From a virus, in IMG/VR virus record IMGVR_UViG_3300037587_000923, positions 1 through 64,000 of that record: a stretch of 64,000 nucleotides of DNA. One strand, 5' to 3'. This document shows positions 9,275-64,000 of the stretch, one piece after another. Numbering within the stretch: the stretch's first letter is position 1; every line of letters begins with the position of its first letter. Position numbers and translations under genes: made by a program. The notes under the pieces are model-generated. The model had not been told where the DNA came from, did not search any database, and saw only the letters and a program-made list of their open reading frames with translations.

Positions 9275-10339
9275 ATGGCTGGAGCAGAGATATACGAAGT
9301 ATCAATAAGGGAAATGAAGGAGGTAGTGAAGGCATGCTACGAAACAAACACTCCGGTTATAGCGAGAGGGGGGCCTGGGCTTGGTAAGACAACAGGATTT
9401 ACTCAGGCTGCAAATGAGCTCAAGATAGGATGCAGGATTGAGGAGGGAAGTTCGCTCGACCCGTCAGACGTAAGGGGAGTTCTTGTTCCCAACCTCAAAG
9501 AGAAGACATCATTCTACACGACGCCTGCTATCCTGCCGAATAAGGAGGAGGGGCCAAAAGGACTGCTCGTTATCGACGAACTCGGCGGGTGTATGGCAGC
9601 CACACAGAAAGCTCTCCAGTCTCTGTTCGACCTAAGGAGAATAGGAGTTCATGGACTTATGGAAGGATGGCTTCCTGTAGCAACCGGTAATTATGCAACA
9701 GATGATGCGGGTGCTTTTAATCTCCTGACTACTTTTCAGGACAGGGGGGTAATACTCAACGTAAAGCCGAACTTCAACGTATGGAAGGAGGACTTCGCTC
9801 TCCCAACTGGAATTCATGAGAATATTATTTCATATCTGGATTTCAAGACGGCAGCTTTCTACACATTCAACGACAGGAAAACCGGTTCTCCTAAGGGTAA
9901 GGGCTTCGCATCGCCAAGGACTTATACTATGGCTTCAAGGTTTCTGAAGCTTAACCTGGCAGAGAACATCCTCAGGCCGATACTGATCGGTCTTCTCGGT
10001 GAGGGCGTAGCAAGGGAGTTGATGGGCTTTTGTGAGATCAGTCACAAGCTGCCAGCAATAGAGGATATATACAGAGGAAAGACAAATGCAGTCCCTGAGG
10101 ATCCGGCAGCACTGTATGCTTTGAGCGGTTCATTGGTTGCCTTCCTGAGAGGTTTGCCTGACGATCTGGCTATGAACGTGGCACTGGAAAGGCTCATGGA
10201 ATATACAAGGAAACTTCCTCGTGAGTTCGCCTGTCTTACCATGAAGGATGCCCAGCATTTAGTTGGCGATAAGCTGAAGAAATGTAAGGGCTGGGTAGGT
10301 TGGGCTAAAGACTACAAAGATCTCATACTGGCACTATAA
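9275..10339 (+). CDS. MoxR/dynein-related AAA+ ATPase
   Basis: Walker A GGPGLGKT, Walker B LLVIDE, ATGN sensor, SPRT motif. Confidence 0.9.
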   Translation: MAGAEIYEVSIREMKEVVKACYETNTPVIARGGPGLGKTTGFTQAANELKIGCRIEEGSSLDPSDVRGVLVPNLKEKTSFYTTPAILPNKEEGPKGLLVIDELGGCMAATQKALQSLFDLRRIGVHGLMEGWLPVATGNYATDDAGAFNLLTTFQDRGVILNVKPNFNVWKEDFALPTGIHENIISYLDFKTAAFYTFNDRKTGSPKGKGFASPRTYTMASRFLKLNLAENILRPILIGLLGEGVARELMGFCEISHKLPAIEDIYRGKTNAVPEDPAALYALSGSLVAFLRGLPDDLAMNVALERLMEYTRKLPREFACLTMKDAQHLVGDKLKKCKGWVGWAKDYKDLILAL

Positions 10340-18985: not shown

Positions 18986-19371
18986 ACATAAAAGAATTCA
19001 ATCCATTCGAAGATGTGCTGGTCTGTCCTGAGTGTGGAAAGGACGACTTCTCAGTTCTTAATGTTTCAAGAACTGAGAAGTCTATATATACAGCGGCATG
19101 TGCTCATTGTAAGATGCGGTTCCTGGCAGAAAGCTATACCGAATGGCCCAACGATTTTGAGGTCTCTCGTAGGGTAAGGGCGAGAGGGGTCAAAGTAAAT
19201 TCAAATGACGATAGTTGGGGCATACTATTCTGTGAAGGCAAGGAGCCTGAGTGGAGATGGATGAGAGGAGGACAGCCCCCTAAAACCAGAAAGGCGTCGA
19301 TGGCAAACAAAGAGATTCAAGAGCGATGGATTGCTCATTTAGTAGCAGAAAAAATGATGGAGAGCCAATAG
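18982..19371 (+). CDS. Zn-ribbon paralogue 4
   Basis: LVCPECG...CAHC; C-term AHLVAEKM. Confidence 0.7.
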   Translation: MNIKEFNPFEDVLVCPECGKDDFSVLNVSRTEKSIYTAACAHCKMRFLAESYTEWPNDFEVSRRVRARGVKVNSNDDSWGILFCEGKEPEWRWMRGGQPPKTRKASMANKEIQERWIAHLVAEKMMESQ

Positions 19372-41900: not shown

Positions 41901-42917
41901 GTTTCCTATTTCAGGGACCCTGCTTGCTTCGAGGTTCCAGGCAAACATAGCTGTAGTGACAGCTTTGGCAACGGTCTCCATATTCTCGCCGGATACTGTT
42001 GTGACGGCCGCAACTGTCTTCATTGCTTCTGCAGTCGCCCTTGCACTCAAACCGGCCTGAACGAGCTTAAGGCCCATCTTGGCTGCTTCAGCGGCGGCGA
42101 GCGGAGTGGTGCTTGCAACCTCTTTAGCTGCATCGCCTACAAGCCTTATCTCCTCTTCTGATTTGGCAGTGATGGCCTCTATGTCTTTGAGGGCTTGGTG
42201 GAACTCGATGGTGTTACGTGCAGCCCTGGAGAGGGCCCCTGCTATAGTGAATATTATTCCGGCAGAAGCAAACCATCTGATCTGGAACTTGGCATACTTA
42301 CCTATATCAGCAGCGAAGCTACGCACATGCTCCATGTTCTTGATGGCATCTTTAGGGATGAACTGGCCAGCGGCTAACTGCTCCCGTTGTCCCATGAATT
42401 GCTGGCCGGCGCCTCTGGCAATAGATAAAGGTTGAGCGCCTGTTGCGCCTCCTAGCCCCATGCCCGCCTTTCCGGCCTCACGCATCTTACGAACGTAGCC
42501 GTCGAGAAGCTTGACGCCCTTCTTGAGTTCTTGGTTGGAGTGCTTTTGCTTATTGAGGTGTTCCGTGATGTGTGTTAATAGCGCACGATATTCTTCCTTG
42601 GTAGCCTTGACTCCGGTGAGCCCCTTGCGGTAGGCGATGGCGCCGGCAGCCTCTGCTTTGGCTATCTTCTGAATCATCTCGAGGCGTTGCCTGCCGAGGC
42701 CAACAGCCTTCTTGGTGGCTTTGGCGGTTGATTCTGATATCTTATTTTGTGACGCTACTATCTGGCTGGATAACTGATTGACATTGATCTTGCCAGCCCC
42801 CCCGGCGCCGGCACTGATCTTGTTGAATTCATTCCTAATACCCTGCACGAAGCCTCTTATTTGTCTAATTGCCGTCTTTGTGTCGGCTAAGACTCTTATT
42901 TCAAGCTTCGTGGCCAT
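38964..42917 (-). CDS. tape measure protein
   Basis: 1317 aa helical; GIRASTIGTGL TP901-type core. Confidence 0.92.
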   Translation of the reverse strand: MATKLEIRVLADTKTAIRQIRGFVQGIRNEFNKISAGAGGAGKINVNQLSSQIVASQNKISESTAKATKKAVGLGRQRLEMIQKIAKAEAAGAIAYRKGLTGVKATKEEYRALLTHITEHLNKQKHSNQELKKGVKLLDGYVRKMREAGKAGMGLGGATGAQPLSIARGAGQQFMGQREQLAAGQFIPKDAIKNMEHVRSFAADIGKYAKFQIRWFASAGIIFTIAGALSRAARNTIEFHQALKDIEAITAKSEEEIRLVGDAAKEVASTTPLAAAEAAKMGLKLVQAGLSARATAEAMKTVAAVTTVSGENMETVAKAVTTAMFAWNLEASRVPEIGNVLAGALNFSRLTVEDLGTAFNYLASTSAIMGRNLAETSAALAVLSNMGIRASTIGTGLSQLMTQLVAPTAKFGEELKRVGVSANDINPTMNKMSVIITRLRDAGFSAAKSMDILGVRAGRILAASIIATGEAFDDMEKKITKQNMLNDALKKSMEGPRNALMKMRNQLDIAVTQIGDVAVPAIVGMADVMGFLLQRFRDATAVLSFLAEKLTGLGAALALTTAAGIIPMVLHGKKLITMFKGLTIATISFSGALAVLAKHPYIYASIALIGALSALGAMFTRNKKKMNELALAKDKDIEKTRRQAQVAAELRAEQARLEEAVTKLSEAWDKIKDPIAKLPMVAKIREIVAQMDLMSMSTDAYNVRIGKLEKSLAGQVKAFDNLGKSAKESLIKQFSDQVKETTYRLKELKSEAGKVGGEIAHSFRTAFAALAETKPGQLAAETISGILGRSTTDELKALADYRKYLEKTGDALVARARAINKEHKAGTIDAKGLEKEMKKLLIDYKAYEEIANKVRVSLSKLTRRTKDYSNALRAAQKGVIGLQQKLADLKETDPITKIGLQTARDLATTNLTLLKFEEKRAKVTAKLNSKIASPEARVELLKQEGILGKIVAAYFKQLDLISETGNLRKSQAAEARKLDFGEIEAGHAKLKLEAEQKLLNIRKIMKTISPVEGLMKEVELENKKLNILIRQKQARLDAIRAEKIGSKDKDLEIARLELELAQLRGQKAGVPSVETQTAGAIPAEVSELLSMQNKLDQMKLARDGYLEYLRESGATEVEIARAKEEAKTQIEDQSNQMRFSAMQNNINMTLGLMDILYVASGSKNKKLFLAMKAAAFGQAIISAHQAAALALANPPGPPTTIPMAATALKMGYLNAGMIAAQTFASMSAKGGGSMAAGGGGGGDRGYKYFDLQATKYGTGFRPGEEQGATQVTYNINAVDAKSFKALVEENPSAITEVVQQDIKDNGKTKEVIKNYAA

Positions 42918-43291
42918 GATTCTTACGTTCCCTTCTTTTTGATTGTTCGTCTCTTATCTGGCCCCGCTCTCCGAGGATTATATCTCTCCACACAAAGTAT
43001 GCGTTTGTCTCATCTAATAAAGCAGATGGAAGCCTGGTCGAGGAGGCCATCTCTCCCCCCTCGACCATCTCTATGAATGTTATGATGTTTACAATTCTTT
43101 TGTTAAGGGCTGATATGGGACAGCTCATTAACACTTTCTTGAAGATTCTTATTGGCGCTGGCTTGTATCTTCCTTCACAGTTTCTGGTTCGCTGGAGCTT
43201 TTTTCTTTGACAGTAGCCGCAGTCCCAGACTCCTGAGTCGTCTCTTTCTCGGAGCCACTCAATGATGGTGACTCCTTGCCGGAGTTTTTTT
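42901..43291 (-). CDS. tail assembly chaperone GT extension (-1 frameshift product)
   Basis: A AAA AAC slippery site at ~43284-43291; -1 frame is open through WDCGYC...MSCP to stop 42901. Confidence 0.75.
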
Positions 43292-43712
43292 CCGTTACCT
43301 CATCGGTGACACCGGTTACCTCTTGCACGAGATCAGTCATGAGATCGTCCGAGAGTAGCTCTATGTTCTCAGAAGAGAACTTTACTTCGTCTCCCTCTTC
43401 ATCCTTTATAGTCTCCCAGCCCGACAATGCTATTCGTAGTATTTCCAGGTTGGTCTTTAGGGAGTTGAGTGATATTCGATAGAGAGCTCCCATGCTGCCT
43501 TCGGCTAACTTTTCGGATAACTTTTCGGCTACGTCCTTTGTGTCGCCTTCTGCCACTATGTTTGCCGGAATATCTATGTCGGAGTTGGACATTATTTCGA
43601 GATTTTCAAATCTCGTCAGGCTCCTCAACATAAATACTGGAGCGCCTTCCTGCCCTCTTAGTTCTTTGGGAGTATACTTCCTTACCTTCTTAGATAGCGC
43701 TGTTACATTCAT
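43149..43712 (-). CDS. tail assembly chaperone G
   Basis: between tube and TMP; LSGWETIKDEEG..VKFS. Confidence 0.8.
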   Translation of the reverse strand: MNVTALSKKVRKYTPKELRGQEGAPVFMLRSLTRFENLEIMSNSDIDIPANIVAEGDTKDVAEKLSEKLAEGSMGALYRISLNSLKTNLEILRIALSGWETIKDEEGDEVKFSSENIELLSDDLMTDLVQEVTGVTDEVTEKNSGKESPSLSGSEKETTQESGTAATVKEKSSSEPETVKEDTSQRQ

Positions 43713-43819
43713 CTCTCTTCTCCTGGTTGGTTGAATGTTAGAGCCCGGGCTGCTCATTTAAAAGCTGGACGAACCAGGACGTCCACCCAGGCATTGAAAC
43801 CTGGCTCCTATCTGCTACC

Positions 43820-45010
43820 CTACAGCCAACTCGCTGAATAAATTTCGTTATCGTATCCCCCGCCCATCGCATCAGAAGTATCGGGCTCACATACGAAAGA
43901 TACGTCGTACTTGAAGAGCCTCGAGTCTACCGTTACCGGGGTCTCTATATACCTGATCGTAGGGAACCTAACAGCAAACATGTTGCCTGCAGCTGATCCT
44001 GCCACGAGTACCAGTTCCGCCCTGGTATCGGCCCTAAGAGCATCCTCGATCGTCTTGTTTTCATAGAGAAGAGAGAAGGAGCCCTGTACCTGCCTCTTCG
44101 TTCTGATGACCTTTGTGATGCCGCTCGTGGTTACCGCTGTCCTTTTAAACAGTTCGTTGTTAATCTCGAAGGCAACATCGCTAACATCATAGGTAACCCC
44201 GCCAATCGTAACGACCATGAGTGTTGCAACGAGAGGGTCGGTTGTGTCATATGATGGACCTGTCGGGACAGCATCGCTGGAGTCGTTCGGCACGAGGGTG
44301 TTCTTCGCCATAAAGTTGAAAGCCGGGACAATGATCTCGCCTGTAGCCATGCTCATGGCGAGTTGGCTAATCTTGCAACCTGCGGCTCCAGTCCTCACAT
44401 ACTCCGATCCGTCCGGGTTCTGCTTCCAGTATTTCAGGTAGAAGCTTTCAAGCTCCGCCTTGTTCAACTTGTAATGATAGCCTGCTCCAACAGCTGCAGC
44501 AACAGCTGGAGTTGCTGATAGGGCTGGAGAGACAGTGAGGGTGTCAGTAGCTATGACTGTAATCCACGCAACCTCATAGGCTGTCCCGCCCCCGCCTGCC
44601 GGGTCAATAAGGACCGCATCACCCACCGCGAAGTTTGAGCCTTCGGTTGCGGTAACGGTAAACTCGGTTGCAGATGTCGCACTAGCTACCGCAGAAGCCG
44701 TAGAGGAGTTCCCTACCCCAATCGCTGCCTCCCACAATGGGTCTGTCTCTGGTGGGGTTGCCGGTGTTCCGCTCCCATGCAGTTCGAAATTCAGCGTCCC
44801 TTCCGCATTAAGCTCAGCCCCCCTTACCTGTGCCAGTGTGCTAAATGTATCCCTTATTACAGCCCTATCTTGCATCTCAGGGTTGTATGTAGGGATAGCT
44901 ACCCCTTCGTTATGCTCGATCAGGTCCGCAGCCGCAAGAGTGGGATCAGTGCCATATGTCGCTTCCTTCTTTATGCCGAGGACGGATCTCGCCTCTAAAT
45001 ACTCAGCCAT
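43820..45010 (-). CDS. major tail tube protein
   Basis: EATYGTDP N-terminus, GCKISQL, FEINN. Confidence 0.85.
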   Translation of the reverse strand: MAEYLEARSVLGIKKEATYGTDPTLAAADLIEHNEGVAIPTYNPEMQDRAVIRDTFSTLAQVRGAELNAEGTLNFELHGSGTPATPPETDPLWEAAIGVGNSSTASAVASATSATEFTVTATEGSNFAVGDAVLIDPAGGGGTAYEVAWITVIATDTLTVSPALSATPAVAAAVGAGYHYKLNKAELESFYLKYWKQNPDGSEYVRTGAAGCKISQLAMSMATGEIIVPAFNFMAKNTLVPNDSSDAVPTGPSYDTTDPLVATLMVVTIGGVTYDVSDVAFEINNELFKRTAVTTSGITKVIRTKRQVQGSFSLLYENKTIEDALRADTRAELVLVAGSAAGNMFAVRFPTIRYIETPVTVDSRLFKYDVSFVCEPDTSDAMGGGYDNEIYSASWL

Positions 45011-45035
45011 CTATTGCCTCCTTTTTATAATTTTT

Positions 45036-45275
45036 TTAGTCTTTGGATTTCTTCTCGGGTTCAGGCTTAAATGAAAGTATCTTTTTGACACTATCGTTTA
45101 GGCATGCCGAAAAGTTATCGTGCTTGCCGGTAAGTACATCCTGAAGAACACTATCTACATGAGACCTCAACCCTTTCCTGGGCTCCAGATATCCCATTAT
45201 ACCGGAAGCGCACTTCTTTTTATCTCCCGACCTCACCATTTGTTTCAGGTGATTTCCTATATGCATCTCTATCAT
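45036..45275 (-). CDS. hypothetical protein
   Basis: GAGGA RBS in late operon. Confidence 0.55.
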   Translation of the reverse strand: MIEMHIGNHLKQMVRSGDKKKCASGIMGYLEPRKGLRSHVDSVLQDVLTGKHDNFSACLNDSVKKILSFKPEPEKKSKD

Positions 45276-45285
45276 AAATTCCTCC

Positions 45286-45990
45286 TTATGGGTTATCTCC
45301 TATAGGCTCCCTTCTCCTGACTGCCATGGGTGTCACAAGATAGAAGCCTCCCTCTACTTGCGGGTTAAAATAAAACCTCGTATCTTGCAGGGTTATGTCC
45401 ATTATGGTCTCGCCATATGGTACGAGTGCTGCGCTAAGATCTTGATCTCTCTGCATAGCCCTTCTTACCATCTTTGAATACAGAGTCTTTCTGGTTTCTG
45501 CTGACTCTTCGTCATTGTCATAAAACAGTGTAGTGATAAGAAAAGGGTAGGTTGCCTCTTCTTTTATATGGGGTACTGTCTTCTGAACCCAATTCTCAAG
45601 CATTAAATAAAGGAAGATGCCCCTGGAATCTTCTATATAGTTGAAGTTCCTTGGCATCCCTTTTCTTATATATATGTGCTCTCCGGTATCGGTGATATTT
45701 GCCTCTGCAAAATTATTATAAAGTGTAAGTTCGGTGTCCGACTCTACCGACTTAACTCTATACCATGAGCTAGATCCTGCGATTCTTATAGCTCCACCTT
45801 TGACTATCTTATCGCCATCAGCGCCTGAGCTTCGTAGTTCGGTCAAGAAAACTGTAGATGCGCCGGTAACAGTCGGGGATCCATTCTGAAACGTCAAGGT
45901 GCCGATCAGGTCGTTTTTGAACTCGGTAATAATATCAGTATCATTCCTGAGTTGAGTTATAATGGCGTCCTGTAAATTCTCTGCGCTCAT
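45286..45990 (-). CDS. tail terminator-like protein with inserted beta domain
   Basis: position before tail tube; LQDAIITQLRND. Confidence 0.6.
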   Translation of the reverse strand: MSAENLQDAIITQLRNDTDIITEFKNDLIGTLTFQNGSPTVTGASTVFLTELRSSGADGDKIVKGGAIRIAGSSSWYRVKSVESDTELTLYNNFAEANITDTGEHIYIRKGMPRNFNYIEDSRGIFLYLMLENWVQKTVPHIKEEATYPFLITTLFYDNDEESAETRKTLYSKMVRRAMQRDQDLSAALVPYGETIMDITLQDTRFYFNPQVEGGFYLVTPMAVRRREPIGDNP

Positions 45991-46844
45991 TTTTGCCCCC
46001 TAAGCCACACCTCGTATTGCTTCATCTCTCTTTCAATGAAGACTTCAGACACTCCCCTGGCTCGCATTCTATTTATTTCATCTTGAAGGGATACGCCCAT
46101 TTCTGAAATCTCTGTTTCTTTTTCAAGGGCCTTAGCTTCAGCTTTTGGTATAGGTATTTCCTCCACCTTCTCTACCTTCTCACCTCCAGTAGGCCTTACC
46201 GAATCTTGTCCCTTTATTGCGGCTGTTAGGACTTGTTGCATATCACCCACAATCAAGTCTATGTCCTCACTGTCAAGCACCATAAACTGTATTCTTCTTG
46301 ATGGAGGACCATATTCAAATGTGCCGAGTTTCCCGGATGCTATATGACTATATCTTTTTACATATCCAAATAACTGGACAGTATCACCGGGCCCCCAATG
46401 TATTTTGGCTGGCCAAGCTCTATCCCCGGACATCACATCGTTGGGATCGATCCTATCTTCAGCATCGGGGCCCAGGGGATTTTGTTTCTCCTTTGCTCTA
46501 CCTGATGGATAATGCTGCTTGCCTTGTGGCCAGGTGCCTCCAAGAAAAATTCTTGCTTCTTCATCCGAGAAATCTTGACTTATCGAATTGAAAGTTGTCC
46601 CTGTCAGGAAGCCCGGATCTCCATCATGGGGAAGTACCGGTATTTTCTTTTTAAAGCTTTGATAGCCGCTACCCTTTTTAACTTGTGCTGCAAAGCGGGC
46701 GGCATACTTCCCCTTAGTTTGCCGGTATGCCCTGCTGGCTCCGACCTGGTGAAGGTTGCCGGGTTGCATCGCGGATACAAGCCTGCCGACTGTCTCATCG
46801 ATCTCTTTGAAGTTAGCGACTATGCCAAACTTTACTATGCTCAA
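45987..46844 (-). CDS. neck/tail completion protein
   Basis: position; TGTTFNSI, PSRRIQFM. Confidence 0.55.
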   Translation of the reverse strand: MSIVKFGIVANFKEIDETVGRLVSAMQPGNLHQVGASRAYRQTKGKYAARFAAQVKKGSGYQSFKKKIPVLPHDGDPGFLTGTTFNSISQDFSDEEARIFLGGTWPQGKQHYPSGRAKEKQNPLGPDAEDRIDPNDVMSGDRAWPAKIHWGPGDTVQLFGYVKRYSHIASGKLGTFEYGPPSRRIQFMVLDSEDIDLIVGDMQQVLTAAIKGQDSVRPTGGEKVEKVEEIPIPKAEAKALEKETEISEMGVSLQDEINRMRARGVSEVFIEREMKQYEVWLRGQK

Positions 46845-54918: not shown

Positions 54919-55745
54919 GTAAGGATACTTATCTGGAAGGGTATGATGCGGTGGCGGGAAAGAAGGAGTACATTACGTCATCTCAGATAGCTTCATTCTG
55001 TGAATGTGGAGTGGAATACCTCCGCAGGTATATTATGAAGGAGAAGACGGGCTACGGTTCTGCAGCAGCCTACGGAACAGCAGGGCACTATGCTGAGAAT
55101 GAGATTAGTCTTCGCCCTAAAATAATCACCAAGAAAGATATGCCTCTCGATGTCGTTCAGGATGCGTTTAGAGACCACCTTCAAAGCATCAAGGGTGATA
55201 TAAGATGGAACAAGAAAGAGAGGAAGGAGGGCGTAAGGAAGCTATGGAGGGGGATGCAAGATGGCGGGATCATCGCAATGGAAAAGCTACATCTTGAGCT
55301 TGCCCCTAAAATTCAACCCATCTCCATCGAGGCCAAAATAAGAATACCCCTCAAGGACTTCCCTAAAGATATACTTGGCACTTGGGATATCGAATGCAGG
55401 AGAGATATCTGGGACTGGAAGTTTAAGGGTAAGACTCCAAACCAAGCTGATGCAGACGCCAATATAGGCTTTACTATCTACAATGCTGCCAAAAAAATTA
55501 ACGATGGTATAGCGCCGCGCCACCTCCATATGGCAGGGATAGTCAAGCTTAAAAGAGGGCCAAAGACTTTCGACATTATCACTAAGAGGAATGACGATGA
55601 TTTCCACAGGGTTCTTCTTACTGTCAATAAGATTCAAAAGTCTATTGAGGCCGGGATCTTCCTTCCGGCCTCCCCATTATCGTGGAAATGTAGCCCAAAT
55701 TGGTGTGATTTTTTTGAGACATGCACGGATAGGATCAAGAGGTAG
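54915..55745 (+). CDS. PD-(D/E)XK exonuclease (RecB/Cas4-like, Fe-S)
   Basis: SQIASFCEC, GTAGH, GTWD...DWK, C...WCDF...C. Confidence 0.8.
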   Translation: MSKDTYLEGYDAVAGKKEYITSSQIASFCECGVEYLRRYIMKEKTGYGSAAAYGTAGHYAENEISLRPKIITKKDMPLDVVQDAFRDHLQSIKGDIRWNKKERKEGVRKLWRGMQDGGIIAMEKLHLELAPKIQPISIEAKIRIPLKDFPKDILGTWDIECRRDIWDWKFKGKTPNQADADANIGFTIYNAAKKINDGIAPRHLHMAGIVKLKRGPKTFDIITKRNDDDFHRVLLTVNKIQKSIEAGIFLPASPLSWKCSPNWCDFFETCTDRIKR

Positions 55746-55748
55746 TCA

Positions 55749-56312
55749 TTGCCTAAGATTTATAAACACAAAGGTAAACTCACGGTCAGCATTAACGGGA
55801 ATCATGTCAGACTAAAAGATCTTGCTAAGGAAGCTGGTATCTCTTGGGACACTGTCAGAACTCGCCGTTTCAACGGTATGGCTGAAACCCTAGAAATGGC
55901 TTTAAAGCCACCAAAAGGTATGGGTCAATAGTACCTTTCTAGTGGGTATCCAGCTGTTACTATTAACGGAAACCCAAAACACCTACATATCATAGTTGCA
56001 GAGAATGCATTGGGTCGGAAGTTGGGAGGAAAAGAAGAGGTTCACCATTTTAACGAGGATAGGTGTGATTTTAGAAATAAGAATCTGGTGATATGTGATG
56101 GTAGAGAATACCACCTGTTGTTACACAGAAGAAGGGCTGCATTAAAAGCTACTGGCTATGCAAGCTCTAGGCGCTGCAAGATTTGTAGAAAATGGGACAC
56201 CTTGGAGAGTGACGATCTTTATATCGACCCTAGCGGCAAGACTGTTTTTCACAAAAGCTGCAGAAGGCTGAAACGCAAATCAAAACGAAACACTAAACAG
56301 GAGGAAGTATAA
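55749..56312 (+). pseudogene. HNH endonuclease interrupted by an in-frame TAG (55929-55931)
   Basis: both ORFs are in the same frame; intervening YLSSGY...HIIVAENALGR; VHHFNEDRCDFRNKNL. Confidence 0.7.
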
Positions 56313-57448
56313 TGGAAAAAAATAAGGGTCTACAGCTAGTAGATAAAAAAGAAATGGCAGGGGGTGGTGGCTTTTCTCTTGCTCCAAGTAATCTAGGGGA
56401 GGCAATGGAGTTCGCCAAGATGATGGCTAATACAGACATGGTCCCTCGAGACTACGCTGGAAAACCTGCCAACATAATGATAGCTGTCCAGATGGGAGCC
56501 GAGATCGGCCTTAAACCGATGCAAAGCTTACAGAACATATCTGTGATCAACGGCAGGCCTAGCGTGTGGGGAGACACCGCAATTGCATTAGTCAGGGTTC
56601 ACCCTGACTGTGAGTCCATCAATGAATACCTTCTCGATAAAAATGGTAATAAGACCACTGGTACCGATTACGACACTGCAGTTTGTGTAGTGAAGAGGGC
56701 TGGCCAAGACGAAGAGATTAGGACTTTCAGCCTCGCTGACGCCAAAAAAGCCAGACTTATTGGTAAAACAGGGCCATGGTCTACTCACGAGAAGAGGATG
56801 TTGCAGCTGCGAGCTAGAGGTTTTGCTCTCCGTGATGTTTTTCCTGATGCATTAAAAGGCCTAGCGATTGCAGAGGAAGCTCAAGACTTACCACCTCGAG
56901 ACATCACTCCTGCCAGGGAAGAAGTATTGACTCCCGAGTTCGATGTGCCCGTCATAGACACCGGCCGTAGTGTTATGGTTGAGGAGGTTGCCAATGAAGA
57001 AGTAGTTGATGCCGCCACTGGAGAGATCACTGAGGGGTCAGAGCAGAAGTCTGAGTCTGCCAAGATCGAGGATGACGACGCTCTCGATGCAACCGTTACC
57101 GGCATGATCGATCGTATTGAGAATATCGGTAATAAGTTCGAGGGGGATAACTGGCTGACCAAACATAGCTCTGAAATCAACAAGCTTCCGGAAGATGCCA
57201 AGGAAGTTGTTATGAACAACTACAAGGGGAAAATGGAAGATCTGGCATCGGAGGGTGTGGCCAAGGAAGAGGGATCAAAAGGTGACGAAGACTCCCTTGT
57301 TCTTGACTACATAAAGAAGCTGGAAAAACCTAAGAGCCTGGAGGAGCTTGACGCTATATTTGACGAGGCCCAGAATAAAATAAAGACCGGCGCAAAGGTT
57401 GTCGCCCTTCGTAAGGTTAGAGACAAGAAGGCACAGGATTTTAAGTAA
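56312..57448 (+). CDS. recT: RecT-like single-strand annealing protein
   Basis: GKPANIMIAVQMGAEIGLKPMQSLQNISVINGRP, RMLQLRARGFALRDVFPDALKG. Confidence 0.85.
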   Translation: MEKNKGLQLVDKKEMAGGGGFSLAPSNLGEAMEFAKMMANTDMVPRDYAGKPANIMIAVQMGAEIGLKPMQSLQNISVINGRPSVWGDTAIALVRVHPDCESINEYLLDKNGNKTTGTDYDTAVCVVKRAGQDEEIRTFSLADAKKARLIGKTGPWSTHEKRMLQLRARGFALRDVFPDALKGLAIAEEAQDLPPRDITPAREEVLTPEFDVPVIDTGRSVMVEEVANEEVVDAATGEITEGSEQKSESAKIEDDDALDATVTGMIDRIENIGNKFEGDNWLTKHSSEINKLPEDAKEVVMNNYKGKMEDLASEGVAKEEGSKGDEDSLVLDYIKKLEKPKSLEELDAIFDEAQNKIKTGAKVVALRKVRDKKAQDFK

Positions 57449-57588
57449 CATTGGCATTGAGGGGCCGCCGGATTGATGGCAACCTCTTTCAAAAACTGAG
57501 TGGCGGGGAAAGCCGACTCCTGTAAAAATCAGACAGATGTTTAGGCGGTCACTCTCGAATAACTGGTTATGAAACTTGGAGGTAGAAA

Positions 57589-57789
57589 ATGAACACTACA
57601 GAGCAACGCATGGCGGCAATATTTAACGAGTGGGCAAAACGTTATTCTGAGAACCCTGACGCTTTCGGGCCTATATTTGATGATGAGGGGAAGCCGGTCA
57701 CCGACTATGGAGTAAGATGCGCACGCTATTTCAAAAAGGTAGCCGATGAAATGGACAGCAAGGGGATATTACCCGCACCTGTTTCATAA
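57589..57789 (+). CDS. cassette 1 hypothetical protein
   Basis: ends gttatga/tcataac. Confidence 0.7.
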   Translation: MNTTEQRMAAIFNEWAKRYSENPDAFGPIFDDEGKPVTDYGVRCARYFKKVADEMDSKGILPAPVS

Positions 57790-57867
57790 CGCTTGAGGTA
57801 AGCGGAACGAGCGTAGCGAGTTTCCCACTTGAGCGAATTGTTATGTTGAAACTTTTAACTATAGGAG

Positions 57868-58200
57868 ATGCTGATAATGACACCTGAAATTAATAAAAAA
57901 TATTTAATTACGACCGATAATTGGTTTTTGGCACCTGATGGGAATAGTTATCGCGCAGTATTTGGAACTGTCATAGGAATACAAACAGACGAAAATACAT
58001 TGGGAGTTAAAACGAATAGAAGCTCGACAAACTGGTATGTTGCTATCGGGAATATGTTGATCGCTGGTTGTCAAATACATTATGTAATCCAAGTGGATGA
58101 GGTAAGCTTTAACGCACCTAATAGAGAAATAGAGCACGATGGTAAATTAACTAAAGAGAGGGAAAGCATAACAAGAATATATAATGCCGATGAAACATAA
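57868..58200 (+). CDS. cassette 2 hypothetical protein
   Basis: ends gttatgtt/aacataac. Confidence 0.75.
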   Translation: MLIMTPEINKKYLITTDNWFLAPDGNSYRAVFGTVIGIQTDENTLGVKTNRSSTNWYVAIGNMLIAGCQIHYVIQVDEVSFNAPNREIEHDGKLTKERESITRIYNADET

Positions 58201-58234
58201 CGATTGAACTAAACTGCGGCGAAAGGAGAATATC

Positions 58235-58378
58235 ATGAAATGGGAATGTGGAAATTGTGGACACAAGGTTACTGAAAAAGAAACTGTTGAAGGTGGGAAT
58301 AAAGAATGGAAATGCCCTAAATGTTCTAATATCAATAAGCATGAAAAAAAGAAAAGCGCGTTGAGCCGTCAGATTTGA
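58235..58378 (+). CDS. 47-aa Zn-ribbon ORF nested inside attC
   Basis: AGGAG RBS; MKWECGNCG...WKCPKCS...SRQI*. Confidence 0.7.
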   Translation: MKWECGNCGHKVTEKETVEGGNKEWKCPKCSNINKHEKKKSALSRQI

Positions 58379-58416
58379 GTGACTGGGTTAGGCCGCACGA
58401 ACCTTAGGAGGTAAGT

Positions 58417-58605
58417 TTGGAAAAGCCAGAATATTTAAAAGATGAACATTTAAAATATCTAAATGAGCTGAAAGAAACCAAAATGGTACCCATGTTTGGA
58501 GCAGCATCTACCTTGAGATTATATTATGATTATCTGACAAAGGAGCAAGCCAGGAAAATATTAGCCTATTGGATAGACACATTTCAAGAGAGACATGCGG
58601 CATAA
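58417..58605 (+). CDS. cassette 3 hypothetical protein
   Basis: ends gttaggccgca/tgcggcataac. Confidence 0.7.
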   Translation: MEKPEYLKDEHLKYLNELKETKMVPMFGAASTLRLYYDYLTKEQARKILAYWIDTFQERHAA

Positions 58606-58646
58606 CAATTGAACTGTGCCGCTTGCAAAATTAAAGGAGAAAACCT

Positions 58647-58961
58647 ATGAGTGGAGTTATAGACTTACCCTGTGGATGCACAATGGATGATTATTCAGGA
58701 CTAGCACTTTATGTTTGCCAAGCGTGTAGAGAGCGCAAGAAGAGGCAAGAGACTTCAGAACGCGACAGCGTTTTGCAAGTCGGAACCAGTGATGGGTTAG
58801 ACTGCCCCCTTTGTGCGAAGATGGGGCCGAAAGAAGTTTATGAAAAGTGGGGCTTTGATTATGAAGCAAGATATAAAGACACATGCAAAGCGCATAGACC
58901 GCTAATGCTTGAGAGAATGGAAGATGGACTGAACAAGTTGAAAGAGCTTCTGGCAGACTAA
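58647..58961 (+). CDS. Cys-rich ORF starting in the attC loop and reading through into cassette 4
   Basis: AGGAG RBS in loop; reads across gttagac. Confidence 0.65.
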   Translation: MSGVIDLPCGCTMDDYSGLALYVCQACRERKKRQETSERDSVLQVGTSDGLDCPLCAKMGPKEVYEKWGFDYEARYKDTCKAHRPLMLERMEDGLNKLKELLAD

Positions 58962-59317
58962 CAAGACAAGCTAAGGGGCTTGAACGAACGCAGTGAGAGA
59001 AAGTCCAAGGAGTGAAACGACTGTCTTTGAGCGCCTGGGTTATGTTTTTTGATATGACAGGGCAAAAAATCGGAGGTTATTATGGACGACATAGCAATAA
59101 ATGAAGGTCAAAAGATATTTGAAGAAAGATATAAAAAGGGATTTCCAAAAGTGATATTTGGGGAGACGCACATCTCAATTCCTTGCACTTGCGACGATGG
59201 CGGTGGGCCTATTCACTGGGCAACAGTGCAGAACAACATAAGATCGATAGAAGAACATTTCCGGCATGAGGAGACTTTGCGTGAATTAAGGAAAATGGAT
59301 AGGGACAAAACATAACG
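58959..59317. repeat. exact 359-bp duplication (copy 1): attC + gene
   Basis: appears identical to 61287-61645 by eye; encoded proteins identical. Confidence 0.9.
59082..59315 (+). CDS. cassette 5 hypothetical protein
   Basis: identical to 61410..61643. Confidence 0.7.
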   Translation: MDDIAINEGQKIFEERYKKGFPKVIFGETHISIPCTCDDGGGPIHWATVQNNIRSIEEHFRHEETLRELRKMDRDKT

Positions 59318-59421
59318 TTGCCCTTAACCCGCACCTGAGCCAAGTTCCTATGAAATTGGAGACACCTTTAGGTGTCGGTGGTTCAAGGGCTTGGTTATAA
59401 AACTTATCTTACGGAGGACTT

Positions 59422-59589
59422 ATGAAAGCTGAAATAAAGAAAGATGGATTTATTTGGATAACCGCTGAAGACGCAACAGAGGCATTCGCGCTTAATCATT
59501 TAGTGCCAGTTGGTGACAAGGCGGAGGTGTGTAAAGAGTGCAACCAGGTTAAAATACCCGTTGTTATAGATGCGAGCGTATTAAACTAG
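59422..59589 (+). CDS. cassette 6 hypothetical protein (55 aa)
   Basis: GGAGG RBS; ends gttataaaact/agttttataac. Confidence 0.65.
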   Translation: MKAEIKKDGFIWITAEDATEAFALNHLVPVGDKAEVCKECNQVKIPVVIDASVLN

Positions 59590-59681
59590 GCAGTTTTATA
59601 ACGAACAAGTTAAAGGGACGCTGGAACAGCGTTCCGCTTTGAACGCCTGGTTCTGAGGCGTGTAACTTAAAAGGAGAAGAC

Positions 59682-59813
59682 ATGAGACTGATAATTTTAA
59701 CACTTGGAATATGGGCATTGATGCATGTTGGATTTGACTTCGACTGGATGAGGGTTTTATGGACTATGGGGCTGACTGTTTATGCCGCATGGTATGATTT
59801 AATAAAGCCTTAG
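59682..59813 (+). CDS. cassette 7 small membrane protein (43 aa)
   Basis: AGGAG RBS; hydrophobic; ends gttctgaggc/gccttagaac. Confidence 0.6.
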   Translation: MRLIILTLGIWALMHVGFDFDWMRVLWTMGLTVYAAWYDLIKP

Positions 59814-59900
59814 AACGCCTGAGGTAAGCGGAAGCCGGAACGGCTTTCCGACTTGAGCGATTTGTTAGTTTGGATCTTGACTTTAAGGAGAGGCGACTAA

Positions 59901-60752
59901 ATGGCAAGAATTAAGTATACACAATGTATGGTAAGAGACTGCGAAAAGCCCCATCTATCTAAAGGCTTCTGTAATAGGCATTATCAGCAAATGTGGAAGC
60001 ATGGACGCATTCTGCCTGATGCGGTGCCTATTGAAGACTTGGCCGGAGAGTTATGGGCTGACATTGAAGAGGCTGAAGGGTATCAAGTTAGCAATATGGG
60101 GCGTGTTAAGTCTCTTGTGGGCCGTGGCGGGTTAATAAAGCCACAGATCGAACAAAGGGGGCACATGAATACCCCTAAGAAGCGTGTCTATTTAGACAGG
60201 AGGGCAACAAGAGGCTGGGTTAAATTCTTGTATGTTCACCTAGAGGTAGCCAGGGCCTTTATCCCTAATAAGTTTGACAGCGCCCACACGACCTTTAAAA
60301 ACGGGGATGCCTTAGACTGCCGTGCTGATAATATCGAATGGTGGTGGGAGAATCCACCTGTAGATGATGATGGGTTGATTCAGTTTAGAAAGTCGGTTCA
60401 TTCTGAATTAGGGAAAAAGGTTCTGGCCTTTATTGATGGCAACCAGTCTGCCCTCGATAGTTTCGTAATGCAAAAGACTGACAAGATGAGGAAAATACTA
60501 CAGAGTAAATTCAAAGGGGTCTGCGGAGACAATGTAAACGAAGCGGTGCACGTTGCTTTCAGTGAAGGCATGAGAGACATTAAACGCGGATTGCTTAGGG
60601 CAGACACACATATAGAAAACTGGTTCCTTCGGATTGCAGAGAACCAACTATTGGATGATATTAAAAAGAACAAGCACACTACATCTCAATGGGGCTGCAA
60701 TGGTAATGGCGACGAGTTCGACAAATTTGATTTAATGGCGGCAACAAACTAA
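59901..60752 (+). CDS. cassette 8 NUMOD4/HNH-like protein with sigma region-2-like C-terminus
   Basis: YQVSNMGRVKS, VHLEVARAFIPN, DNIEW; WFLRIAENQLLD. Confidence 0.75.
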   Translation: MARIKYTQCMVRDCEKPHLSKGFCNRHYQQMWKHGRILPDAVPIEDLAGELWADIEEAEGYQVSNMGRVKSLVGRGGLIKPQIEQRGHMNTPKKRVYLDRRATRGWVKFLYVHLEVARAFIPNKFDSAHTTFKNGDALDCRADNIEWWWENPPVDDDGLIQFRKSVHSELGKKVLAFIDGNQSALDSFVMQKTDKMRKILQSKFKGVCGDNVNEAVHVAFSEGMRDIKRGLLRADTHIENWFLRIAENQLLDDIKKNKHTTSQWGCNGNGDEFDKFDLMAATN

Positions 60753-60857
60753 CTATGAATTAACCAGTGGCCCGACCAAGCCACACTGAAAACGGACACG
60801 CCTCTTGCCATCTGGTTGAATGGCGTGTTATAAATTTTGCATTAGGAGGGTAATTAG

Positions 60858-61289
60858 ATGAGAGGATATGCGTGTATAGGGTTGGATAACCCCAAGGCGG
60901 CAGTTAACGTAGGATCGGCTTTGAGAGCCGCAGGGTGCTATGGGGCTGCAATGGTGGCTATGACGGGCAACCGGAGCGGAAAGACACCCACTGACACCAT
61001 GAAGCAGTATCGACATAGGCCGTTGTTGCGCGTTGAAAATTTGAAAGATGTTATTCCTTATGACTGCGTGCCTGTGGCAGTTGATTTGATAGAGGGAGCT
61101 ATTCCATTGCCAGAGTATGAACACCCCGAAAGAGCCTTTTATATCTTCGGGGCTGAAGATGCCACCCTGGGCGAAAGAGTGACATCTTGGTGCAGGGACA
61201 CTATATATATTCCCACTAACGGTTGCATGAATCTAGCAGCAACGGTTAATGTGGTGCTATATGACCGGCTTGTTAAGCAAAATTTATAA
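60858..61289 (+). CDS. cassette 9 SpoU/TrmH-family RNA methyltransferase
   Basis: NVGSALRAA, YIFGAED, IYIP...MNLAATVNVVLYDR. Confidence 0.88.
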   Translation: MRGYACIGLDNPKAAVNVGSALRAAGCYGAAMVAMTGNRSGKTPTDTMKQYRHRPLLRVENLKDVIPYDCVPVAVDLIEGAIPLPEYEHPERAFYIFGAEDATLGERVTSWCRDTIYIPTNGCMNLAATVNVVLYDRLVKQNL

Positions 61290-61645
61290 CAAGACAAGCT
61301 AAGGGGCTTGAACGAACGCAGTGAGAGAAAGTCCAAGGAGTGAAACGACTGTCTTTGAGCGCCTGGGTTATGTTTTTTGATATGACAGGGCAAAAAATCG
61401 GAGGTTATTATGGACGACATAGCAATAAATGAAGGTCAAAAGATATTTGAAGAAAGATATAAAAAGGGATTTCCAAAAGTGATATTTGGGGAGACGCACA
61501 TCTCAATTCCTTGCACTTGCGACGATGGCGGTGGGCCTATTCACTGGGCAACAGTGCAGAACAACATAAGATCGATAGAAGAACATTTCCGGCATGAGGA
61601 GACTTTGCGTGAATTAAGGAAAATGGATAGGGACAAAACATAACG
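61287..61645. repeat. exact 359-bp duplication (copy 2)
   Basis: appears identical to 58959-59317. Confidence 0.9.
61410..61643 (+). CDS. cassette 10 (duplicate of cassette 5)
   Basis: identical protein. Confidence 0.7.
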   Translation: MDDIAINEGQKIFEERYKKGFPKVIFGETHISIPCTCDDGGGPIHWATVQNNIRSIEEHFRHEETLRELRKMDRDKT

Positions 61646-61680
61646 ATTGACTATATGGACATTTAATGTTGGTGTGAATT

Positions 61681-62052
61681 GTGAATAAGTATTATAAGCA
61701 AGTAAAATATAGACAGAATCAGAGAGATAAAAAAGAATGTTACCGTTTAAATTCTACTGATACGATTAGGGAATCTTATTATCAGCCACCTGAATTTAGA
61801 GGATTGAGGATATATGGAGATTGTGATCTCGGTTATCTTAGACTTATTTACATTTCTCTATGGGAATGTGGACGTTTAGATTCCTATTACATACGCAACG
61901 AAAAAGTAGAAAATATTGGTAAGCGTCCAAAATTAAATGATGACAATAGCGATTGGTGGATTGACAGTAATGGAAATCGTAAAAAATATGGCAAGGTTAA
62001 TCTTGATAAGAAAATAAGAGAACTGATGCCGAATATAAGGAGGGCGGATTGA
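61681..62052 (+). CDS. hypothetical protein
   Basis: AT-rich ORF coupled to next gene. Confidence 0.5.
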   Translation: MNKYYKQVKYRQNQRDKKECYRLNSTDTIRESYYQPPEFRGLRIYGDCDLGYLRLIYISLWECGRLDSYYIRNEKVENIGKRPKLNDDNSDWWIDSNGNRKKYGKVNLDKKIRELMPNIRRAD

Positions 62053-62549
62053 TGAATTGCTTCCTAGGTAGGGTATACGACGACAAGCATGCCACTTGCA
62101 TTTCCTGTATTAGGGCAGGAGAGAAGACTTGTAAGCAGGTCAAGAAGAAACGTAAGGCCCACGATATTCATACAGTTATGGCTGAAGGCAAGTGGCTTAT
62201 GTGTACTAAAGACCTCAGAACCCCTAATGACTGGACCAACAAGATGTACGGTAAGAAGATTTATAGGGGAGAGAGGTCTGCCTGGGAGAAACAGTTCAGA
62301 GGGATAATCCATTTATGGGGTAAGGCGTCAGGTAAGAGGCGCCTTACCGTTATACGGTATGTTCCTGACAAGCGGTATCTCATGAAAGATAAGACCAATA
62401 GAGAGGGAGCCATGAAGCCTCTTGAGGATGCGCTTGTTAATCAAGGAGTACTTGTTGACGACAGGGATGAGTTCCTGGAGCGTGCCGACCTCAGGCAAGA
62501 GATAGATCCGGCAAGAGTAGGGGTAGCTATCTTAGTGGAGGATATTTAG
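62049..62549 (+). CDS. RusA-like Holliday junction resolvase
   Basis: DKTNREGAMKPLEDALVNQGVLVDDR. Confidence 0.7.
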   Translation: MMNCFLGRVYDDKHATCISCIRAGEKTCKQVKKKRKAHDIHTVMAEGKWLMCTKDLRTPNDWTNKMYGKKIYRGERSAWEKQFRGIIHLWGKASGKRRLTVIRYVPDKRYLMKDKTNREGAMKPLEDALVNQGVLVDDRDEFLERADLRQEIDPARVGVAILVEDI

Positions 62550-62618
62550 GCATGCTGAAAAAAAATTGCCTGGAGATAGTAATATATGACGACAAAGGCA
62601 ATAGGTGTTGTTTTTCTC

Positions 62619-62648
62619 TTGACACCCTTTTCATTACTTTGATAGGGT
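62619..62648 (+). promoter_or_regulatory. putative promoter of replication genes
   Basis: TTGACA with TGnTAGGGT extended -10; palindrome at 62545-62560 upstream. Confidence 0.45.
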
Positions 62649-62832
62649 GCGCTTACATTCCAATTTAACCTTTTGACAGAGGTACGAAGGATCAAATGAA
62701 AACCACTTTTAAACATAGAGAAGCCCACTCGAGCCAGAGCAATCTGGAGCAGGTCCCTTTTGGTCCACCTGTCTGTCAACTCGTGTGGGCTTCTGTGTGT
62801 TTAGCCCAATCCCAAAGAAATAAAGGTGTTAT

Positions 62833-63657
62833 ATGAGTAGATCAAGACGATGTAAGGCCGGGCTGGACTACTTCTCGTTTGATGTTGATTTCTTTGACGA
62901 CGAGAAAATTGAGTTCGTATCAGCCAGATATGGCTTGAAGGGCGAGGTAATTTCCATAAGGCTTTTGTGTCGGATTTACCGTAATGGTTATTTTATTAAA
63001 TGGGGTGATGATGAAAGCTTGCTATTCGCAAAGCGTGTCGGAGACGGTGTCACTCAAGAAGATGTTAAGTGTGTTGTTGACGAGCTGTTCAAGAGAGAGT
63101 TCTTAAGTAAGTCTTTATTCGATAAATGTGGCATCCTTACATCAGGCGGAATTCAAAAGAGATATATCCAAGCAACCGAACGTAGGAAAGGTGTGGAGAT
63201 GATTAAGGATTATATAGCTGTAGACATTACAGATTACGATGTAGACATTTTAGAATTAAATGATGACATTTCAAAACAAAGTAAAGTAAAGGAAAGTAAA
63301 GTAAAGGAAAGTAAAGAAGACTATAAAATTTCTTTCTCTGAATTCTGGGAGGTATATCCTAGTCGTAACGGTAAAAAGATAGATAAGCCTACCACTAAAG
63401 ATAAGTTCTATAAATTAAAACCTTCGGATCTGTCAGACATTATTGTGGCAGTCCATAACTACAAAGACAGTGAATTAGTTAAACAAGGAATTGGCATTAA
63501 AGACCCTCATAGATTTATTAGCAACAAAGACAATAAAGAGTTTTGGAAAGAATGGATGAAGCCTGAGATTAATAATAGCAAGAAACAAAAGAGCCCATAT
63601 GAAGCCCAAAACGAAACTAGGGCTTATCATAAACCAATTAAAAACAGAGGACTATAA
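62833..63657 (+). CDS. phage replication initiator (DUF4373-like N-terminus)
   Basis: GLDYFSFDVDFFDDEKI, LTSGGIQKRY, KESKV repeats, FSEFWEVYP. Confidence 0.85.
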   Translation: MSRSRRCKAGLDYFSFDVDFFDDEKIEFVSARYGLKGEVISIRLLCRIYRNGYFIKWGDDESLLFAKRVGDGVTQEDVKCVVDELFKREFLSKSLFDKCGILTSGGIQKRYIQATERRKGVEMIKDYIAVDITDYDVDILELNDDISKQSKVKESKVKESKEDYKISFSEFWEVYPSRNGKKIDKPTTKDKFYKLKPSDLSDIIVAVHNYKDSELVKQGIGIKDPHRFISNKDNKEFWKEWMKPEINNSKKQKSPYEAQNETRAYHKPIKNRGL

Positions 63658-64000
63658 TGGAACAACCTGGCAGATTACCACCACAAGACCTTGATGCTGA
63701 ACTTTCTGTCCTGGGAGGTTTGGTTGTAGATAGCGATAAATGGGGCGAGGTTAACGCTATCATCTCTGCATCTGATCTTTACCGACAATCCCATAAATAT
63801 ATATTTAACGCCATAGGCTCTTTAATATCAAAAGAGGAGCCAGTCGACTTACTTCTTCTTAACTCTGAACTGAAAAACATGGGGGTTCTGGAGGAAAGTG
63901 GCGGGACTGGGTTTATAGCACGTATTGCCGATGGTGTAGTAACAACAGCAAACATAACCTATTACGCTAATATAATCAAAGAGAAGGCTGTCGCCCGAAA
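63657..64000 (+). CDS. dnaB: replicative helicase DnaB, N-terminal part (truncated by window)
   Basis: RLPPQDLDAELSVLG...HKYIF...PVDL...ANITYYANIIKEKA. Confidence 0.9.
   Translation, partial: MEQPGRLPPQDLDAELSVLGGLVVDSDKWGEVNAIISASDLYRQSHKYIFNAIGSLISKEEPVDLLLLNSELKNMGVLEESGGTGFIARIADGVVTTANITYYANIIKEKAVAR

Follow-up and report, generated by a model that had tools for sequence, protein, structure and literature searches.

Integrons are the textbook bacterial device for the capture and shuffling of genes, in which promoterless cassette genes are read from a Pc promoter on the top strand of their attC recombination sites. Phage genomes with integrase-less clusters of attC sites (CALINs) and a few phage-borne integrons have been published with recombination assays, and phage attC sites were shown there to recombine with attI1 under the integron integrase IntI1 (Qi, Rajabal, Ghaly, Tetu and Gillings 2023, PMC9892861). 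Here, we describe an array of ten hairpin sites in a tailed phage, located on the + strand at positions 57443–61645 of a 64-kb window (the whole stretch of DNA that was first read). The window is the first part of a linear IMG/VR record of 82,045 b, approximately 72% complete (IMGVR_UViG_3300037587_000923). Among public sequencing runs, a marine-sediment metagenome matched this DNA best and may be where it came from. The array is probably a genuine CALIN, of reversed polarity, inside the early recombination/replication operon of the phage. A previous sequence-only reading of the window had considered integrons to be rare in phages, which must be corrected, as phage CALINs are already in print (PMC9892861). 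The new aspect is the reversed polarity, as far as the literature was searched: no description of cassettes on the bottom strand was found for phages in the integron literature, in which the supplementary list of 17 CALINs of PMC9892861 may hide reversed cases.

Hairpin Sites and Their Polarity

Between recT and an unannotated open reading frame (ORF) at 61681, eleven small + strand ORFs were observed, separated or enclosed by ten imperfect hairpins (h0–h9, Table 1). The sequence-only reading had delimited the array by recT and a RusA-like gene; the ten hairpins were found at the places it gave, but the unannotated ORF intervenes before the RusA-like gene. Each site begins with (T)AAC and closes with GTT(A). 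The AAC...GTT of the core pattern RYYYAAC...GTTRRRY was present in 10/10 sites, as TAAC in nine of them and as GAAC in one. The site that follows recT, h0, was itself of the attC type, and no attI was evident.

Two covariance models were used. Model R1 was built from four of the phage + strand sites, and model R2 from six bacterial attC bottom strands (attC-aadA1 of plasmid R100 and the five sites of a metagenome contig, L032) with no phage sequence at all. With the filters off, R2 recovered eight of the ten array sites at E<=0.05, with scores from 17.3 to 43.2 bits, as expected of imperfect hairpins with an R box, an unpaired spacer and an L box. Over the whole 82,045 b genome, R2 gave 15 matches at E<=10, all of them on the + strand. 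The background was low: in 487,117 b of other loci, R2 produced four matches at E<=0.05, three of which corresponded to a real array (in locus L021, see below), and R1 produced a single match (E 0.7) in 457,769 b of other phage loci. R2 also matched loci L011 and L020, but within long ORFs, and these matches were discarded as false. These results show that the hairpins are genuine attC-type sites.

Less specific approaches were of little use. A generic inverted-repeat finder failed to pick up the bulged hairpins, and a generic scan of the genome for AAC...GTT duplex energy was unspecific and was abandoned. Exact attC patterns gave no match in viral contigs, none in genome contigs and two in metagenome contigs. 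An Rfam scan of positions 55000–64000 returned four chance-level matches only, with the attC family absent. The + strand folded as well as or better than the − strand in 11 of 12 sites, with small margins, and free-energy z-scores were kept out of the main evidence.

The polarity of the sites was deduced from their extrahelical bases. In attC-aadA1 of R100, the two extra bases of the top (coding) strand belong to the 5' arm. Its bottom strand accordingly has the form AAC-spacer-GTTAAG...CTT[G]AAC-spacer-GTT, in which a T and a G bulge from the 3' arm, and the phage + strand has this same form. The bulges in the 3' arm of the + strand, noticed by the sequence-only reading, were found both in the R2 alignments and by inspection; in h5, the extra base was a C and not a G. 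The same reading had likened the site at 57784 to the bottom strand of a classical attC. In agreement with this, R1 matched the aadA1-antisense strand of attC-aadA1, a member of the R2 training set, at 57.8 bits (E 3e-12), and did not match the top strand.

Two other arrays served as controls. In L032, a 6-kb metagenome contig found with a pattern derived from two phage sites, R1 placed 5/5 sites on the + strand, and the intervening ORFs were all on the − strand; this contig is a classical bacterial array. In the CALIN published for Tetrasphaera phage TJE1, 3/3 sites were placed by R2 on the − strand and orf1–3 are on the + strand, again the classical layout. Since the same model matches the antisense strand of the cassette genes in R100, in the bacterial array and in TJE1, the coding strand of the present array is the attC bottom strand and its cassettes are reversed. 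Classical cassettes have their ORF on the top strand of attC and the site 3' of the ORF, whereas here every ORF was on the bottom-type strand. The proposal that the coding strand is the recombinogenic one, with genes antisense to the usual layout, was borne out by the 15/15 + strand matches set against the three controls. The separation of the strands expected from an attC covariance model was obtained, with the strand labels turned round.

Cassette Boundaries

The boundaries of the cassettes were visible in three ways. First, the sequence after a GTT was often complementary to the sequence before the next AAC. Nine exact brackets of at least 10 nt were found in the 82-kb genome, five of them in the array (10, 10, 11, 14 and 10 nt), and seven of the nine flanked cassette genes. 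Shuffled sequences contained on average 1.45 such brackets with a maximum of six, and 0/200 shuffles reached nine. The bracket complementarity proposed from the sequence alone was therefore above all 200 shuffles, but two of the pairs offered as examples, gttaggccgca/tgcggcataac and gttagactgcc/ggcagactaac, carry one mismatch each.

Secondly, cassettes 5 and 10 are an exact duplication of 359 bp with both ends located within TAAC. The duplicated unit comprises a hairpin and its downstream gene, and the hairpins 3' of the two copies differ. As the duplicate is bounded by TAAC at both ends, the crossover is placed between the TAA and the C of this core on the + strand. The brackets are uninformative on polarity, but the duplication is informative: independently of the models, it locates the crossover at the AAC side, where it is expected if the + strand is the bottom strand.

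Thirdly, the TAA of the TAAC core was the stop codon in nine of 12 genes, recT included, and one more gene ended with a TAG directly before AAC. The cassette length varied from 214 to 937 nt, and the cassette G+C content from 0.37 to 0.48, as compared to 0.454 for the genome. These observations show that the cassette units are bounded at TAA-C.

We propose the following model of the array. On the coding strand, the mobile unit would consist of the C, the attC hairpin, GTTA, a ribosome-binding site (RBS), the gene and its TAA. The + strand presents the attC bottom features, namely a GTTAAG-type 5' arm and a CTT[G]AAC-type 3' arm that also holds the extra bases, so that an integron integrase would fold and cut this strand at TAA-C. 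Excision or insertion would then move a hairpin together with its downstream gene, and the upstream gene would retain its TAA stop. Expression of the array by phage read-through transcription would make a Pc promoter unneeded. The enzyme may be an IntI acting in trans, provided by the host, by a co-infecting phage or by the missing part of the genome, and shuffling of the array may still continue.

Reversed Cassettes in Another Phage and in Other Contigs

The R2 background matches in L021 led to a second phage genome, IMGVR_UViG_3300037440_000532 (G001), of 49,151 b with direct terminal repeats. It encodes an IntI that reaches 408 bits, where the cut-off is 265, has 48% identity to IntI1 and possesses the IntI insertion. 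Eight R2 matches were located directly upstream of intI and on the intI strand, which is the classical intI/attC geometry. A gene lying between two of these matches on the same strand was recognised as phrog_18518 (144 bits), and the opposite-strand ORFs overlap hairpins and match nothing. It is established that G001 holds a complete integron with reversed cassettes (L021:1900-5313, corresponding to G001:C1 about 42081-46695). The two phages are distantly related, their DnaB N-termini being 35% identical.

In the same locus, a composite palindrome was present in two copies, at L021:1950-2095 and 2751-2895. It was made of AATGGGGCCGTTAAG...attC...GTTGATACGGCGC, with CTTAACGGCCCCATT and a second TTGATACGGCGC approximately 40 nt further on, and has the appearance of a small element, or of a target duplicated within an attC.

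A reversed layout was also found in the metagenome contig Ga0224514_10098659 (L033:1-1004), where a site near-identical to h7 (R1 70 bits) was accompanied by two small genes on the same strand. Among fifteen further IMG/VR loci with IntI relatives, sequence-only nhmmer searches and inspection of ORFs and RBSs gave readings for five G+C-rich loci (L046, L047, L053, L054 and L059), with site matches at E 1.7e-5 to 0.2. Their attC-like matches were located upstream of intI and on its strand, and RBS-bearing ORFs of the intI strand fit between them in L046, L054 and L059, those on the + strand of L059 scoring 203 and 53 bits. This suggests that these three loci carry reversed cassettes; their site calls are weak and they are not counted as established. 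On similarly weak calls, L053 looks classical and L047 ambiguous.

The sequence-only reading had imagined a cassette-shuffling system of the phage using a host IntI or a non-canonical recombinase, an idea which gains plausibility because G001 has a bona fide IntI beside a reversed array. It is possible, at about even chances in our estimation, that tailed phages keep an integron system of their own with a mirror-image cassette pool, in which IntI and the attC polarity are bacterial and the cargo sits on the bottom strand. The present phage would then be an integrase-less client, served in trans by a phage or host IntI.

Alternative Explanations

With at least two attC sites and no nearby IntI, the array has the composition of a CALIN. 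Several observations weigh against the proposed reading. R2 missed h4 and h9, two identical copies which by eye fold as AAC-7 nt-GCTAAG...CTT[TG]AGC-6 nt-GTT. The free energy was separated from shuffles by z <= -2 in only 6/12 folded sites, about half of the sites being unremarkable. The absence of IntI from the window, already seen in the first reading, extends to the whole 82-kb contig (best TIGR02249 match 26–27 bits against a cut-off of 265); no IntI with the family insertion scored above this cut-off, in a contig that is only ~72% complete. Among metagenome contigs, neither excised circles nor alternative junctions of this phage were seen, and no recombination event was seen. One loose contig end of sequencing run X2 diverged after GTTATG and not at AAC; the model can account for this only if the 3' arms of different cassettes are alike. 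In the same run, too shallow (depth ~3) and its contigs too short to weigh either way, near-identical contigs covered two cassettes, the backbone contigs were more divergent and some parts were uncovered. Megablast against phages gave no close relative for a gene-by-gene comparison of the array; a RecT scan retained two loci of 27–28% identity and a DnaB scan 26 loci of at most 44%, all too distant for this purpose.

One contig of a marine metagenome, approximately 88% identical (aligned at 80% likeness), joins recT to the replication initiator gene (window 57423/62811), with 682 other letters replacing 5387. It is a weak hint, from a single contig, that a relative without this array exists.

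Part of this evidence would suit a fossil array, in which the cassettes are now fixed phage genes and the hairpins neutral or mildly useful spacers. The contig contains no integrase, no circle or variant junction was seen in the metagenome contigs, and some sites are degenerate: AAC is changed to AGC at 15455, a copy is truncated at genome position 74160 and a lone half-site stands at 61638. Other traits speak against a fossil. The 359-bp duplication is recent, because its copies differ nowhere; identical mini sites are found 3.5 kb apart; most cores and brackets are intact; and the related contig lacks the whole interval. We consider a fossil unlikely.

A second possibility involves the only tyrosine recombinase of the contig, which is Xer-like. 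The array had been thought to be confined to the recT–rusA interval, and this was not the case: the genome contains three more clusters of sites, each of them on the + strand (Table 1). One of them, at window positions 15455–16848, is a small reversed-cassette cluster closed by a CATAAC motif that lies 24 nt ahead of the recombinase gene, giving an integron-like geometry with an enzyme that is not IntI. If this recombinase acted on the hairpins, it would form a non-canonical phage integron with the cluster at 15455–16824. The gene is on the strand of the bottom-type sites and directly 3' of the small cluster, as intI is relative to the arrays of R100 and G001; besides the CATAAC motif, a bracket GTTATGTT/AACATAAC spans 15988–16824. 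The best NCBIfam match of the protein is the XerA/integron-integrase model (55.8 bits), and the catalytic R, K, H, R, H and Y are conserved across its family, a tiny one with 10 proteins in a large protein database. However, the recombinase is devoid of the insertion of approximately 45 residues common to IntI1 and the G001 IntI, the family scores are all far under the cut-offs, and the 8-nt bracket is at chance level (shuffle mean 24). The one relative in IMG/VR (L034, 38% identity) had no R1 or R2 match within 10 kb on either side, and no R2 match was present on a Nitrospirota metagenome-assembled genome fragment holding another relative. Recombinases near attC sites and without the IntI C-terminal domain were judged not to be IntI in the description given by Cury et al. 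2016 (PMC4889954). This explanation appears quite improbable.

A third possibility, that the hairpins serve the early operon at the RNA or transcription level (as attenuators, processing sites or translational couplers) and are attC-like by convergence, is very hard to maintain. They do occur on the sense strand that is transcribed, in the spaces separating genes and just 5' of each RBS, and attC sites are thought to be weak terminators (PMC9892861). However, a model trained only on bacterial attC scores them up to 43 bits, h1 is near-identical to attC-aadA1 in both arms, the complementary brackets and the TAAC-bounded duplication are footprints of site-specific recombination rather than of an RNA role, and the Rfam scan was empty of relevant families.

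Cargo Genes and Genomic Setting

The coordinates of the sites, cassettes and neighbouring genes are given in Table 1. The cargo of the reversed cassette array is of the phage type, with a phrog_22562 protein, a NUMOD4/HNH endonuclease, a SpoU-type methyltransferase and small Cys-rich proteins. The NUMOD4/HNH, SpoU (TrmH-type) and RecT identities assigned from the sequence were confirmed by Pfam and PHROG matches. In Pseudomonas, Erwinia and Aeromonas phages, the homologues of the 110-aa cargo gene abut their neighbours with no R2 match, showing that the phrog_22562 gene is not everywhere a cassette. The duplicated 77-aa protein had one homologue, of 66 aa, and no viral locus was found for homologues of this protein. 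Over the initial 300 nt of the NUMOD4/HNH cassette gene (window 59889–60205), the summed contig depth reached 78 and 66 in two other metagenomes, far above the other bins, and this stretch may be widespread.

The phage belongs to the tailed class, as indicated by genes for a tail tube, a tape-measure protein and an S49 prohead protease, all on the − strand. The + strand carries a replication and recombination set composed of an exonuclease, RecT, a replication initiator and DnaB. The label of the RusA-like gene comes from a single weak PHROG match (22.3 bits), with no Pfam or NCBIfam match.

Three other features were observed in this genome. A reverse transcriptase of 274 aa (window 12663–13487, RVT_1 80.8 bits) is flanked by non-coding, self-complementary DNA. 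Directly 3' of the recombinase gene, at window positions 17834–19371, four tandem paralogues of 112–145 aa each open with a CPxCG...C zinc-ribbon-like motif. A gene for a TnpB RNA-guided endonuclease (L031:10866-12017, genome 74866–76017, NF038281 404 bits) is followed by 466 nt of non-coding DNA, and no TnpA was seen.

Table 1. Sites, cassettes and associated genes of the phage. Positions refer to the window unless marked as genome or L031 positions.
Feature	Position	Strand	Evidence and remarks
recT, upstream backbone gene	56312..57448	+	PF03837 25.7 bits; phrog_561 180 bits; stop codon formed by the TAA of the first TAAC core
attC-like site h0, 131 nt	57443..57573	+	R2 19.9 bits, E 0.01; bottom-strand polarity
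Cassette 1 gene, 66 aa	57589..57789	+	Bracket GTTATGAAAC/GTTTCATAAC; weak phrog_32159
attC-like site h1	57784..57847	+	R2 41.6 bits, E 1.4e-8; near attC-aadA1 bottom strand
Cassette 2 gene, 110 aa, common phage protein	57868..58200	+	phrog_22562 83.9 bits; tblastn matches in 87 phage records
attC-like site h2, 200 nt	58195..58394	+	R2 26.1 bits, E 2e-4, arms aligned; loop encloses 47-aa ORF
47-aa CxxC...CxxC ORF, complete, in h2 loop	58235–58378	+	Weak Zn-ribbon Pfam matches below cut-off
Cassette 3 second gene, 62 aa	58417..58605	+	
attC-like site h3, 204 nt	58600..58803	+	R2 17.3 bits, E 0.05; loop has RBS and N-terminal half of 104-aa ORF
Cassette 4 gene, 104 aa, Cys-rich	58647..58961	+	Reads through h3 3' arm
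Cassette 5: site h4 (58955–59047) and 77-aa gene (59082–59315)	58959..59317	+	Exact copy of 61287–61645
attC-like site h5	59310..59401	+	R2 18.5 bits, E 0.024; DNA fold -18.4 kcal/mol, z -4.19; extra C in 3' arm
Cassette 6 gene, 55 aa	59422..59589	+	
attC-like site h6	59596..59657	+	R2 26.8 bits; T, G and G bulged, 3' arm
Cassette 7 gene, 43 aa, hydrophobic	59682..59813	+	
attC-like site h7	59810..59871	+	R2 43.2 bits, E 5e-9
Cassette 8 gene, 283 aa, NUMOD4/HNH endonuclease	59901..60752	+	PF07463 33.5 bits; phrog_959 60.5 bits
attC-like site h8	60747..60834	+	R2 23.6 bits, E 0.001
Cassette 9 gene, 143 aa, SpoU/TrmH-type methyltransferase	60858..61289	+	PF00588 54.8 bits; 14-nt bracket
Cassette 10: site h9 (61284–61374) and 77-aa gene (61410–61643)	61287..61645	+	Second copy of cassette 5; h9: R1 16.4 bits, E 0.34 (weak)
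Lone 5' half-site CATAACGATTGAC, array right end	61638..61660	+	Inspection only; 3' partner not found
Unannotated 123-aa ORF between array and RusA-like gene	61681–62052		
Degenerate h1 copy, second cluster (AAC>AGC)	15455..15518	+	R1 40.3 bits; R2 21.2 bits
140-aa cassette gene, then mini hairpin 15958–15998	15539..15998	+	Bracket GTTAGCCT/AGGCTAAC; mini hairpin by inspection, no model match
Xer-like tyrosine recombinase, not IntI, the contig's only one	16848..17849	+	PF00589 47.6 bits; TIGR02249 27 bits vs 265
Two clusters beyond the window	L031:5484-5546, 6300-6346, 9797-9929, about 10160 (genome 69484–74180)	+	
Site of these clusters	genome 69484	+	R2 36.2 bits
Identical 38-nt mini site, two copies	genome 70307 and 73798	+	
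Further site	genome ~73838–73929	+	R2 13.5 bits, E 0.53
Truncated site copy	near genome 74160	+	

Implications

If the existence of a phage cassette pool of opposite polarity is true, it would provide a site-specific route to the mosaicism of phage accessory genes ("moron", anti-defence and homing-endonuclease genes), and would imply that the strand choice of IntI and the orientation of the genes can be uncoupled. Turning the ORFs rather than the sites would let the arrays, and in G001 also intI, follow the one-directional phage transcription. The arrays, in some phages together with intI, would sit in one-directional operons and be expressed by read-through without Pc. The TAA-C core would double as a stop codon and make the cassettes maximally compact. 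The recombinogenic strand would be the non-template strand, and we speculate that transcription could expose and fold the sites. The array offers substrates for asking whether bottom-strand transcription promotes attC folding, from the 38-nt mini sites to the 200-nt sites with genes in their loop. Because routine annotation looks for an ORF 5' of each attC, it would misread such arrays.

Comparison with Known Integrons

The array resembles the phage CALINs as described in PMC9892861 in being an attC array in a phage with no IntI nearby. In the TJE1 CALIN, the one published example used for comparison, the bottom strand is antisense to the genes at 3/3 sites, whereas all sites of the present array have it as the coding strand. 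The present phage also has more sites, with at least ten in one array and at least four clusters, and genes within attC loops.

With the aadA1 cassette of In2 from plasmid R100 (NC_002134), the phage sites share the AAC/GTT cores, the unpaired spacer and an L box with extra bases. As in classical cassettes such as this one, hybrid cores leave complementary brackets and a cassette is duplicated, and h1 scores like attC-aadA1 with the same model. In contrast to classical cassettes, the gene is on the bottom strand, attC precedes the gene, the crossover core contains the stop codon, and the contig has no IntI and no evident attI or Pc.

G001 is similar to the present phage by its reversed cassettes on the attC bottom strand, its phage-type cargo and the position of the array upstream of replication genes; it differs in encoding IntI directly downstream of the array, the window phage being without IntI. 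The co-direction of intI and cassette genes is a trait that the reversed layout shares with the inverted integron-integrase group of Treponema and others, as that group is described by Cury et al. 2016 (PMC4889954). According to this description, intI is turned relative to attC in the inverted group, whereas in G001 the intI/attC arrangement is classical and it is the ORFs that are turned.

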